From the NCBI RefSeq assembly GCF_988242995.1, contig NZ_OZ547043.1: a DNA stretch of 64,000 bases; one strand, 5' to 3'. This document shows, piece by piece, positions 10,926 to 14,735 of the stretch (positions within the stretch are counted from its first letter, which is position 1; each line of letters begins with the position of its first letter). The position numbers were made by a program, and so were the translations under genes. The notes beneath the pieces were generated by a model. The model was given only the letters and a program-made list of their open reading frames with translations, was not told the DNA's origin and searched no databases.

Positions 10926-11666
10926 ATGTTAGATCAAGTATGCCAGCTTGCACGGAATGCAGGCGATGCCATTATGCAGGTCTACGACGGGACGAAACCG
11001 ATGGACGTCGTCAGCAAAGCGGACAATTCTCCGGTAACGGCAGCGGATATTGCCGCACACACCGTTATCATGGACGGTTTACGTACGCTGACACCGGATA
11101 TTCCGGTCCTTTCTGAAGAAGATCCTCCCGGTTGGGAAGTCCGTCAGCACTGGCAGCGTTACTGGCTGGTAGATCCGCTGGATGGTACTAAAGAGTTTAT
11201 TAAACGTAATGGCGAATTCACCGTTAACATTGCGCTCATTGACCATGGAAAACCGATTATAGGCGTGGTGTATGCGCCGGTAATGAACGTAATGTACAGC
11301 GCGGCAGAAGGCAAAGCGTGGAAAGAAGAGTGCGGCGTGCGCAAGCAGATTCAGGTCCGTGATGCGCGCCCGCCACTGGTCGTTATTAGCCGATCCCATG
11401 CAGATGCGGAGCTGAAAGAGTATCTGCAACAGCTTGGCGAACATCAGACCACGTCCATCGGCTCTTCGCTGAAATTCTGCCTGGTGGCGGAAGGGCAGGC
11501 GCAGCTGTACCCGCGCTTCGGACCAACGAATATTTGGGACACCGCCGCTGGACATGCTGTGGCCGCAGCTGCCGGAGCGCACGTTCACGACTGGCAGGGT
11601 AAACCGCTGGATTACACTCCGCGCGAGTCGTTCCTGAATCCGGGATTCAGAGTGTCTATTTACTAA
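10926..11666 (+). CDS. cysQ: 3'(2'),5'-bisphosphate nucleotidase
   Basis: 246-aa ORF with inositol monophosphatase-family motifs ([12 protein letters not shown]). Confidence 0.95.
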
Positions 11667-11878
11667 ATTCAGATGGCAGAAACAGTGTATTTCCTGATTC
11701 TGCCATCCTGATTTCTCCCAACCTAAAAAGTTATAAATAAAAAGAGATTGTATTTAAAGTGCAAAAATTCAATTGCTAATAAGTTACATTTTAATAATGA
11801 GCGTTTTTTGATAGTTATACTTCTATAATGAGATATTTAATGGCGACATAAAATAACCAAATAAAATAAGGTAGCCAT

Positions 11879-12790
11879 ATGTTACCCAGGATCAGACACA
11901 ATAATTTTATTGGTGCGGTGGAGTTATTCGTAAAATCATCGCATACAAAAACACATTCAAACAATTTTTTTAACAATATCCAGCATGCATTTAAGAAAAA
12001 AGATTGGATTTCGAATTATGATAGCCTGTTAACTTTGCGGGAGTTCTTTCGTTGCGCAACTCAGATTGATAAAAGTAGTTATCAGGTGCTTTCATCAAAA
12101 AATGAAAATGTTCACGCCATGGATAAGTTTCTTATCAGTTTCAGCATTAAAGATAACGGTGCCGAATATATAATGACATTGCGAGGCAGTGGGTTTGAAT
12201 ACGAAGAAATTCCCATAACAATAAATGAGTATAACTCATTCATGGATTTCAAAAACCGCGAGTTTCCGTTAGAACAAAACAGAAGATTGTATGCCCGGGA
12301 TATTCTGCAGAAAAAACAGTCTGACATACCGGAAAGGATTAAAGGTTATATTCGCCAGGCGATTGGTGACGTGTCTTTAGGTTATGCCTTATTGGAGGAT
12401 ATAGTAAGCAAATTAAAACGGGGTAAATTTGACCTCCAAATTCCAGGAGGTGGAATTAAAGAATGCGATGGATGGTATATTTACGAAAAAATAATTGATG
12501 ATAATTTTGCCATAGTCATAGAATCTTTGGGCTTTGCGCTTAAAATCTATGGAGGGGATGAACGTTTTCGTAATGGTTCCTCTGTTTTTTTGAAGGATGA
12601 AGATTACTCTCTTATTTATAATTTTCTGGTTAATGCAGGTTGCCAACAAGTCGAATTAGCCGAACAAGTGGATGCGATAGTAAGTGCGAATCTGGCCGCA
12701 GATAGTGATATTACCGAAGAAAAGATTTGCGAGAAATATAAATCGACCATTGAGGCGTTTAAAAAAAAGCAACTAGCGTTACCAGTATGA
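11879..12790 (+). CDS. ytfI: Uncharacterized protein YtfI
   Basis: 303-aa ORF in a strongly AT-rich segment with an AT-rich upstream region; no recognisable domain. Confidence 0.75.
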   Translation: MLPRIRHNNFIGAVELFVKSSHTKTHSNNFFNNIQHAFKKKDWISNYDSLLTLREFFRCATQIDKSSYQVLSSKNENVHAMDKFLISFSIKDNGAEYIMTLRGSGFEYEEIPITINEYNSFMDFKNREFPLEQNRRLYARDILQKKQSDIPERIKGYIRQAIGDVSLGYALLEDIVSKLKRGKFDLQIPGGGIKECDGWYIYEKIIDDNFAIVIESLGFALKIYGGDERFRNGSSVFLKDEDYSLIYNFLVNAGCQQVELAEQVDAIVSANLAADSDITEEKICEKYKSTIEAFKKKQLALPV

Positions 12791-12878
12791 GTTCGGCGTA
12801 AGAACTCAGAGGCTTAATTCCCCTATCCCATAGATAACGATAGGGGAAAATTATTTTGCAGAATTTATGTTATTGCCA

Positions 12879-13433
12879 TTATTTGAGCAACTTTTGCAGC
12901 AGGTCCATCACTTGCTGCACCTCTTCCTGTGTGAGCGCCCCGTCTTTGGCCCATTGCACGCGACCGTCTTTATCCAGCACCACTACAGCGGAACTTTCTT
13001 CATCCAGCTGCCAGGCACCGCGCGCGACGCCATTGCTATCGACAATAAACTGCGACCAGGGATAAAGCTTTTTATTACTTTCCAGACTGCTGCGCACAAA
13101 CATGCCGGAACCCGGAATTGCGTCGTCGGTGTTAACAATGGTGGTGGTCTGGTAACGATCGTGCGGTAACTTTGCTGATTTAATCGCTTCAATCAGCGTC
13201 GCGTTTTTCTCTTTTGCAGAGGTGCGACCAGCAATATGTTGCAGTACTCGCACTTTTCCCACTAACTGCGCGCTGTTCCAGGTTTTGTAGCTAAACTGAT
13301 CTTTATCAAGCACCAACTCGCCCCGATCGGTAATGCCAATCGGCGGCACTCGCTGACCGGTTTCGAACTGATGTGCGGAAGCCATCATCGGCAACAGCAG
13401 GCAGGTGAGTGCCAGAATCTTGCGTAGGGTCAT
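12879..13433 (-). CDS. ytfJ: Periplasmic protein YtfJ
   Basis: 184-aa ORF with signal peptide MTLRKILALTCLLLPMMASA. Confidence 0.9.
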   Translation of the reverse strand: MTLRKILALTCLLLPMMASAHQFETGQRVPPIGITDRGELVLDKDQFSYKTWNSAQLVGKVRVLQHIAGRTSAKEKNATLIEAIKSAKLPHDRYQTTTIVNTDDAIPGSGMFVRSSLESNKKLYPWSQFIVDSNGVARGAWQLDEESSAVVVLDKDGRVQWAKDGALTQEEVQQVMDLLQKLLK

Positions 13434-14016: not shown

Positions 14017-14735
14017 AAATGCGCCTGTAAGGCTCTGTTACCAGCCGCGCCCTAACAGGCGCATACGATCTGACATTTGCATTCAACTTCGTTACTTACG
14101 GCCCGTAAACGGGCTGCCCGGATATGGAATCGATAACTGCTCCCCCATTTTATCCTCTTCAAGCTGGTGCTTTATGTAGTCACGTATCTTCGCCGTGTTC
14201 TTACCCACCGTATCGACATAGTACCCTCGGCACCAGAACTCCCTGTTTCTGTATTTGAATTTCAAATCCCCAAACTGCTCGTAAAGCATCAGACTGCTTT
14301 TCCCTTTCAGATATCCCATAAAGCCGGATACGCTCATTTTGGGTGGGATTTCCACAAGCATATGGATATGATCTGCGCAGCACTCTGCTTCCAGAATCCG
14401 TACGCTTTTCCACTCACACAGCTTTCTCAAAATACTGCCTATCGCCCTACGCTTCTCTCCGTAAAACGCCAGTCTTCGGTATTTCGGCGCAAAAACTATG
14501 TGATATTTACAGTTCCAGCGGGTGTGCGCTAAGCTCTTTTCGTCCCCCATTGGGACCCCCTTTTGATTTCTTGTTTGACACTTGCAGTTGCCAGACCGCA
14601 AGGTGTTTTAACAAATCAAAAGGGGTTTTAATAACTGGCTCAAAGCTGAAAGCTTTCCGGAACCCCCAGCCTAGCTGGGGGTTTTCTGTGCACAATAAGA
14701 CGGCTCCTGATTCAGGAGCCGTTGATGTTTCTGGG
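14017..14735 (-). mobile_element. IS200-like insertion sequence (IS200/IS605 family); boundaries approximate
   Basis: About 0.7 kb unit carrying a single HUH Y1 transposase, subterminal hairpins at both ends and no terminal inverted repeats, lying between ytfK and ytfL. Confidence 0.8.
14092..14550 (-). CDS. tnpA: IS200-family Y1 (HUH) transposase TnpA
   Basis: 152-aa product MGDEKSLAHTRWNCKYHIVFAPKYRR...HIHMLVEIPPK...SPFTGRK with the HUH motif; RBS sequestered in an upstream hairpin. Confidence 0.92.
   Translation of the reverse strand: MGDEKSLAHTRWNCKYHIVFAPKYRRLAFYGEKRRAIGSILRKLCEWKSVRILEAECCADHIHMLVEIPPKMSVSGFMGYLKGKSSLMLYEQFGDLKFKYRNREFWCRGYYVDTVGKNTAKIRDYIKHQLEEDKMGEQLSIPYPGSPFTGRK

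Follow-up and report, generated by a model that had tools for sequence, protein, structure and literature searches.

Between cysQ and ytfJ on the E. coli chromosome lies a single AT-rich gene, ytfI, and the question this locus raises is where that gene came from, how long it has been there and whether it is kept silent by H-NS. An initial annotation, made from the sequence, had described the gene as a 303-aa ORF with a long AT-rich upstream region and had put it forward as a candidate for xenogeneic silencing. Among the "y-genes" of K-12, ytfI is one of those still without an assigned function, and both the gene and its binding by H-NS in K-12 have already been published. What we add here is the polarity of the insertion, its age, the selection regime acting upon the gene, the hairpins found at its ends and a second cargo at the same site. 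The anatomy and composition of the segment, the polarity and age of the insertion, the selection on ytfI and its orphan status were all computed in this work, for which the window is the whole stretch of 64,000 nucleotides that was analysed. In our reading, which we regard as highly probable, positions 11667-12878 represent an ancient, horizontally acquired, single-gene and AT-rich islet carrying ytfI, a substrate for H-NS whose protein product would be selected yet dispensable. The interpretation given in the initial annotation is supported by this analysis.

The locus and its composition

The genes in this part of the window run cpdB (-), cysQ (+), ytfI (+), ytfJ (-) and ytfK (+), an order which is identical in K-12. 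The 303-aa ORF is present between cysQ and ytfJ as had been annotated (Table 1), and the name ytfI holds as well: the gene sits in the same context as K-12 ytfI and is the orthologue of b4215, with 289/303 residues identical (95%), zero gaps and 14 amino-acid differences. At the DNA level the ytfI segment is 96.7-96.9% identical to that of K-12, which has the same gene at the same position with the same upstream region and hairpins. The two alleles differ in where they stop, with codon 304 being TGA here and TTA in K-12, which gives the K-12 protein (WP_000937655.1, 312 aa) nine further C-terminal residues. When 5,426 complete E. coli genomes were searched by megablast, the matching segments carried the annotation "ytfI: protein YtfI" in some cases and hypothetical protein in others.

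Table 1. Features at the cysQ-ytfJ junction, in window coordinates
Feature	Coordinates	Strand	Description and basis
cysQ	10926..11666	+	3'(2'),5'-bisphosphate nucleotidase, left flank; ORF, K-12 annotation, junction analysis
AT-rich inserted segment	11667..12878		1,212 bp, GC 0.351; between cysQ and ytfJ stop codons
5' hairpin	11669..11711	+	candidate cysQ terminator or insulator brought by the insert; core arms GATGGCAGAA / TTCTGCCATC
AT-rich upstream region	11712..11878	+	GC 0.24; presumed site of the ytfI promoter
ytfI ORF	11879..12790	+	303 codons + TGA, ATG start; ORF list
3' hairpin	12818..12848		candidate terminator between convergent ytfI and ytfJ; 10-bp arms, 11-nt loop, then AAAATTATTTT
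ytfJ	12879..13433	-	right flank, derived 184-aa form ending LQKLLK; ORF, junction analysis

The left edge of the inserted segment is the cysQ stop codon, and GC content falls from approximately 0.5-0.6 within cysQ to 0.29-0.39 over 11.6-12.9 kb. Taken as a whole, the 1,212-bp insert has a GC content of 0.351 against a mean of 0.507, which places it in the bottom 1.6% of same-size windows across the 64 kb and far from the composition of the core genome. The initial annotation had reported about 200 bp of very AT-rich DNA ahead of the ORF, and this stretch was recovered as the 212 bp that separate the stop codon of cysQ from the ytfI ATG (11667-11878), where GC is 0.278, in the bottom 0.27% of all 212-bp windows in the 64-kb window. 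The contrast extends to third codon positions, with GC3 of 0.35 for the ytfI ORF vs 0.58 for cysQ. The list of ORFs contains no second ORF of substance inside the 1,212-bp insert.

The window differs from K-12 in one further respect: downstream of ytfK it has an IS200-type element which is missing from K-12. This element encodes a transposase of 169 aa (14092-14601, minus strand; PF01797 Y1_Tnp, E 1e-36) and lies between ytfK and paeA. In K-12 and in AST81, the genome nearest to the window where the ytfI locus is concerned, the ytfK-paeA gap is just ~60-80 bp, and the IS200-type insertion is therefore strain-specific.

An insertion at the overlap of two convergent genes

At least 80% of the query was present in 1,604-1,609 of the 5,426 complete E. 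coli genomes, or approximately 30%; the status of the remainder was taken from sampled rows, in which the cysQ and ytfJ flanks fall inside a 681-bp span. In such a genome without ytfI, the convergent genes cysQ and ytfJ share 11 bp at their ends. The same 11-bp overlap, again without the ytfI segment, is found in Salmonella enterica (L015) and in E. fergusonii (L017). The YtfJ protein provides a second marker of the junction: it has 185 residues and ends in HKLL[SN]K in Salmonella, Citrobacter, Raoultella, Klebsiella, Enterobacter, E. marmotae and E. fergusonii, so that the 185-aa form is the norm in the Enterobacteriaceae and the 184-aa LQKLLK form is the one that accompanies ytfI. Because Salmonella and E. 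fergusonii have the overlap, and because the 185-aa YtfJ is shared across genera, we take the empty site to be ancestral and the ytfI segment to be an insertion. The phylogenetic distribution, which the initial annotation had suggested as a check, is thus a patchy one within E. coli, with absence from both Salmonella enterica and E. fergusonii. Together with the AT-rich composition, the presence in ~30% of genomes and the empty site in the outgroups bear out the foreign origin that had been proposed.

The insertion has altered the C-terminus of the YtfJ protein from ...LLHKLINK (185 aa) to ...LLQKLLK (184 aa) (window 12879-12896; L003 1807-1830). This derived C-terminus is seen in every ytfI-carrying allele examined.

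The overlap motif, CTATTTAYTAA, is present as a single copy in empty sites. Filled sites have it to the left of the insert in the form CTATTTACTAA and to the right in the form TTATTT---GAG/AAG, the latter being one codon shorter. Both cysQ and ytfJ are intact because the overlap sequence now flanks the insert on both sides. A motif present on two sides is the pattern expected from a target-site duplication, and it is possible that one occurred here. We found no tRNA in the 6 kb flanking the insert in each direction, no integrase, IS end or IS remnant within it, and no terminal inverted repeats at its ends. The two ends do resemble one another over 11 nt (9/11 matches), a similarity we considered as possible terminal inverted repeats and rejected, as it is not kept in other alleles. 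No donor of the inserted segment was found. The segment resembles classical genomic islands and islets in its foreign composition, its presence/absence polymorphism and the precision of its boundaries, as well as in what may be a short target duplication. It differs from them in lacking any tRNA, integrase, IS remnant or terminal inverted repeat, and in consisting of one gene in 1.2 kb.

A different cargo is found at this junction in E. albertii, which carries an unrelated 1.5-kb AT-rich insert (L016 3056-4559; GC 0.30-0.36) no more than a few bp away from the ytfI insertion point. Its product is a 385-aa pentapeptide-repeat protein (PF00805, E 7.6e-12), and the insert also occurs in 2 of the 5,426 records labelled E. 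coli (SCPM-O-B-9504 and SCPM-O-B-7615). The cysQ/ytfJ overlap would appear to be a place where inserts are captured repeatedly.

Age of the insertion

The divergence among ytfI alleles gives a means of assessing how long the segment has been in place. Alleles at 87, 78 and 69% protein identity share the same junction and have an upstream spacer of ~211 nt with a GC content of 0.27-0.28. In the two most divergent ytfI genomes, the flanking genes are 94.6% and 88.5% (cysQ) and 97.1% and 89.7% (ytfJ) identical to those of the window, and the lineage with the 69% allele is nearer to E. coli than is E. albertii (about 87%) or E. fergusonii (about 83%). Expressed pair by pair, dS for ytfI and cysQ was 0.087/0.099, 0.14/0.086, 0.36/0.26 and 0.68/0.71. 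Because dS in ytfI tracks that in cysQ in this way, the insert has diverged together with its flanks, and the insertion is old and segregating, being neither a recent acquisition nor specific to K-12. This differs from the description in PMC4720273, where ytfI is called a K-12-specific insert, whereas here it is seen to be ancient, being shared with Escherichia lineages that have diverged from E. coli and carried by ~30% of the complete E. coli genomes. Strict vertical descent is not the only route by which the filled allele may have reached its present distribution, as it could also have spread between lineages via homologous recombination.

A comparison of L014 and L005 with the window shows that, in the lineage of the 69% allele, the two genes adjoining the insert have diverged further from E. 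coli than their surroundings, with identities of 88.5% for cysQ and 89.7% for ytfJ vs 93.2% for cpdB, which lies one gene away, and 94-96% for core intergenic DNA. This excess divergence may reflect reduced recombination beside an old indel polymorphism.

Selection and decay of ytfI

For all pairs with enough substitutions, dN/dS of ytfI lies between 0.22 and 0.44, compared with 0.01-0.04 for cysQ, and dN of ytfI is approximately 20 times that of cysQ. In the full-length alleles the frame is nonetheless open at 303-312 codons, with no frameshifts, at dS of up to 0.7-0.85. An unselected frame would gain stops, particularly in AT-rich DNA, and we therefore consider that the ytfI frame has been under selection. 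Taken together, these values are best described by relaxed purifying selection acting on YtfI.

The upstream region has changed more quickly than intergenic DNA nearby. Between the window and the 69% allele it retains 84% identity, which is above that of synonymous sites and below that of core intergenic regions (94-96%), and it diverges 3-4x faster than the neighbouring core intergenic regions. We had considered that the region might be unusually conserved, a view which had to be tempered given the 94-96% seen in neighbouring core intergenic DNA against its own 84%. The whole islet, coding and non-coding parts alike, evolves fast.

Decay of the gene is also apparent. A frameshift near codon 28 marks one lineage of ytfI that is widespread (cluster P0007, with 729 member sequences; L018 1345-2259), as a result of which gene callers report a 251-aa, N-terminally truncated product, and ytfI in this lineage is probably a pseudogene. 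In at least three genomes (AST81, L004; ETEC1738, L002; MB53, H70) IS1 is present in the ytfI locus. In AST81 it splits ytfI in a genome that is otherwise 100% identical to the window here, and in ETEC1738 it stands in place of ytfI and the 3' end of ytfJ. IS1 prefers AT-rich targets and the three insertions fit this preference. Judging by the frameshifted lineage and the IS1 insertions, ytfI is dispensable.

Hairpins and upstream signals

The inserted segment has a hairpin close to each of its ends. The initial annotation had noticed the one that lies 3' of the ORF, placing it at about 12820-12850, and we find it there with perfect arms (TTCCCCTATC at 12818-12827 and GATAGGGGAA at 12839-12848), which are complementary at 10/10 positions. 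Its folding energy is -17.4 kcal/mol (z = -2.6), a stability equalled by 3/200 shuffled sequences, and its 3' arm and tail are kept in all alleles. The hairpin at the 5' end had been overlooked and is the stronger of the two, at -21.4 kcal/mol (z = -5.9), with 0/200 shuffles being as stable. It is positioned directly past the cysQ stop codon and occurs once in the window. Across alleles 14/16 of its pairs are invariant and 0 covary; a compensatory G-C to U-A change that we had considered was dropped, as there is no covariation on the MFE structure and the change is seen in an alternative register only.

A consensus terminator scan called a terminator at neither hairpin, probably because their loops exceed the 3-8 nt limit and their T-runs are interrupted, and there was no match in Rfam. 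The two stems are stable (z of -5.9 and -2.6) and conserved across alleles, and both hairpins are candidate terminators. Promoter-like sites were not found above chance (7 vs 5.3 +/- 2.7 expected). A Shine-Dalgarno-like AAGG is located 7 nt 5' of the ATG (11868-11871), and either AAGG or GAGG is found here in all alleles.

H-NS binding and probable silencing

The ytfI locus serves as a worked example of H-NS-bound strain-specific segments in the study of Higashi et al. 2016 (PMC4720273, S10 Fig). ChAP-seq of K-12 in that work places H-NS on ytfI, from where it spreads to cpdB, cysQ, ytfJ and ytfK (S10 Fig), while SE11 and SE15, both of which are without ytfI, have no H-NS at the locus. cysQ, cpdB and ytfK are accordingly given in S6 Table of PMC4720273 as bound solely because of ytfI. 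The segment described here resembles those of PMC4720273 in being AT-rich, in being missing from SE11 and SE15, in the spreading of H-NS into its neighbours in K-12 and in its faster diversification. Given the 96.7-96.9% DNA identity to K-12, H-NS would be expected to occupy the allele of this strain in the same manner, and this binding is likely to mean that transcription is silenced. The literature that mentions ytfI contains no data on its expression in hns mutants, and a literature search on b4215 returned nothing relevant.

Within the insert itself, matches to the high-affinity H-NS motif TCGATAAATT show no clear enrichment, at 1.65/kb vs 1.23/kb for the window, and none of them has fewer than two mismatches. 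Binding by H-NS is generally held to follow AT content, and the low GC of the islet (0.24-0.36) would make it a substrate for the protein. From this low GC and the coating by H-NS in K-12, we consider it most likely that the ytfI promoter is repressed by an H-NS filament under laboratory conditions.

Some care is needed in interpreting chromatin data from this region, which has been described as the top 'disputed' sigma-32 ChIP-chip target and as an example of a false-positive SeqA peak (PMC3870955, PMC2996942). Because it gives known false positives for sigma-32 and SeqA in ChIP-chip, any ChIP enrichment at ytfI needs controls, and these are partly supplied by the comparison of strains in PMC4720273. 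AT-rich, H-NS-coated DNA may be hyper-ChIPable.

A protein without known relatives outside Escherichia/Shigella

Searches of Pfam, NCBIfam and PDB sequences confirm the earlier observation that YtfI has no recognisable domains: there is no family for it in Pfam or NCBIfam at E <= 10, and the best match among PDB sequences has an E of 0.85. Relatives were also sought in sets of 5.8 and 15 billion proteins, and none was found outside Escherichia/Shigella. The word-indexed search of 5.8 billion proteins returned 18 clusters, of which all those with a named source are from Escherichia/Shigella. An exhaustive HMMER search without a word filter, using a profile of eight alleles against 1.84 billion representatives, returned only YtfI fragments and one spurious repeat protein. 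This single hit from outside the group, P0034, was rejected as it is a TPR-like repeat protein whose score is the sum of 13 weak repeat matches.

A scan of one genome per species (100,044 species genomes) yielded 2 loci, one in an Escherichia genome with the 69% allele and the other on a Collinsella MAG contig. The latter (L013, JAIJJM010000759.1, labelled 'Collinsella sp.') is a 1.5-kb contig whose YtfI is 94% identical to that of the window, and it is almost certainly E. coli contamination of an actinobacterial bin. The four "plasmid" matches are all to records that are chromosome-sized or chromosome-derived, and no phage relatives were found by tblastn. Neither PADLOC nor PHROGs provided a match over most of a model. 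The PADLOC match, to Cas6b, covers 40/240 positions at an E of 1e-3 and was judged to be due to chance; that to phrog_3250 (E 6e-4) was made by one allele only and is weak, as a divergent allele failed to reproduce it.

Hydrophobic segments are absent from YtfI, and the prediction is of a soluble protein. AlphaFold yielded weak models, with a pLDDT of 49 for the full-length protein and 61 for the C-terminal 164 residues alone (pTM 0.55). The topology common to both consists of helices, a five-stranded beta-meander and further helices, and fold searches with these models gave no match. With regard to phenotype, overexpression of ytfI from the ASKA library allows growth at 3 mM NaOCl (PMC8228696), and YtfI is within the top 153 proteins in a lactoferricin B proteome-chip assay. 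Both reports are high-throughput and neither points to a mechanism.

Discussion

The sequence comparisons presented here suggest a relatively simple history for the islet. It would have inserted at the 11-bp cysQ/ytfJ overlap in a common ancestor of E. coli and one or more of its sister Escherichia lineages, in such a way that the overlap sequence came to stand on both sides of the insert and both genes were preserved. Filled and empty forms would have segregated ever since as a presence/absence polymorphism. The islet comprises one hairpin next to cysQ and another next to ytfJ, an AT-rich stretch that presumably contains the promoter along with a ribosome-binding site, and the 303-codon ORF, the product of which is most likely a real and soluble protein that is under relaxed purifying selection and is dispensable.

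The opposite polarity was considered as an alternative, in which ytfI would be an ancestral core gene of the Enterobacteriaceae that has been deleted from most E. coli, its AT-richness being intrinsic. That ytfI is old within Escherichia, with divergent alleles at the same site and dS like that of cysQ, speaks for such a history. Deletion would, however, have had to restore the overlap precisely and to do so many times, given that the compact 11-bp overlap of empty E. coli sites is shared by Salmonella and E. fergusonii and that the 185-aa end of YtfJ is found in many genera; nor did the searches recover any homologue outside Escherichia/Shigella. We find this history scarcely credible. A second alternative is that the ORF is a non-functional chance or young frame and that the segment matters as DNA, either as a nucleation patch for H-NS or as a terminator module insulating cysQ from ytfJ. 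This could account for a product which has no homologues or domains and is modelled with low confidence (pLDDT of 49 and 61), for the stable and conserved hairpins at both ends of the insert, for the frameshift or IS1 insertions in some lineages and for the absence of ytfI from 70% of strains. It is at odds with a frame that has stayed open over 303-312 codons at dS up to 0.7-0.85 with dN/dS of 0.22-0.44, with the conservation of the Shine-Dalgarno motif and the ATG, and with the overexpression phenotype of the ASKA clone, which indicates that a product is made (PMC8228696). On balance we judge it to be very unlikely.

As to what YtfI does, one proposal is that it belongs to a conflict or virulence system, either as a type III effector distantly like VirA/EspG or as a single-gene anti-phage protein, silenced by H-NS until induced. 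The VirA/EspG type III secretion effectors were among the known systems set beside YtfI; we consider this proposal very doubtful. A broader and more speculative version holds that YtfI may have a fold absent from the structure databases and a role in conflict or host interaction (for example as a cryptic VirA/EspG-like effector or in single-gene defence) while being silenced by H-NS, and that the cysQ/ytfJ overlap may be a recurrent site for the capture of AT-rich single genes, with ytfI and the E. albertii pentapeptide-repeat protein as its two examples. The combination is improbable.

The analysis leaves current understanding unchanged. The ytfI islet is a clean and minimal xenogeneic example, a single gene on 1.2 kb of DNA whose boundaries are exact and whose empty site is known. 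It is therefore a convenient natural system in which to study the evolution of H-NS-bound DNA and the tolerance of insertions between overlapping convergent genes. Other parts of the window are also AT-rich, with 1,212-bp windows reaching a GC content of 0.31 near 51.4 kb, 0.35 near 54.8 kb and 0.39 near 0.95 kb, and the corresponding stretches (~50.5-52.0 kb, 54.5-55.0 kb and 0.75-1.05 kb) may be additional islands of the H-NS type.
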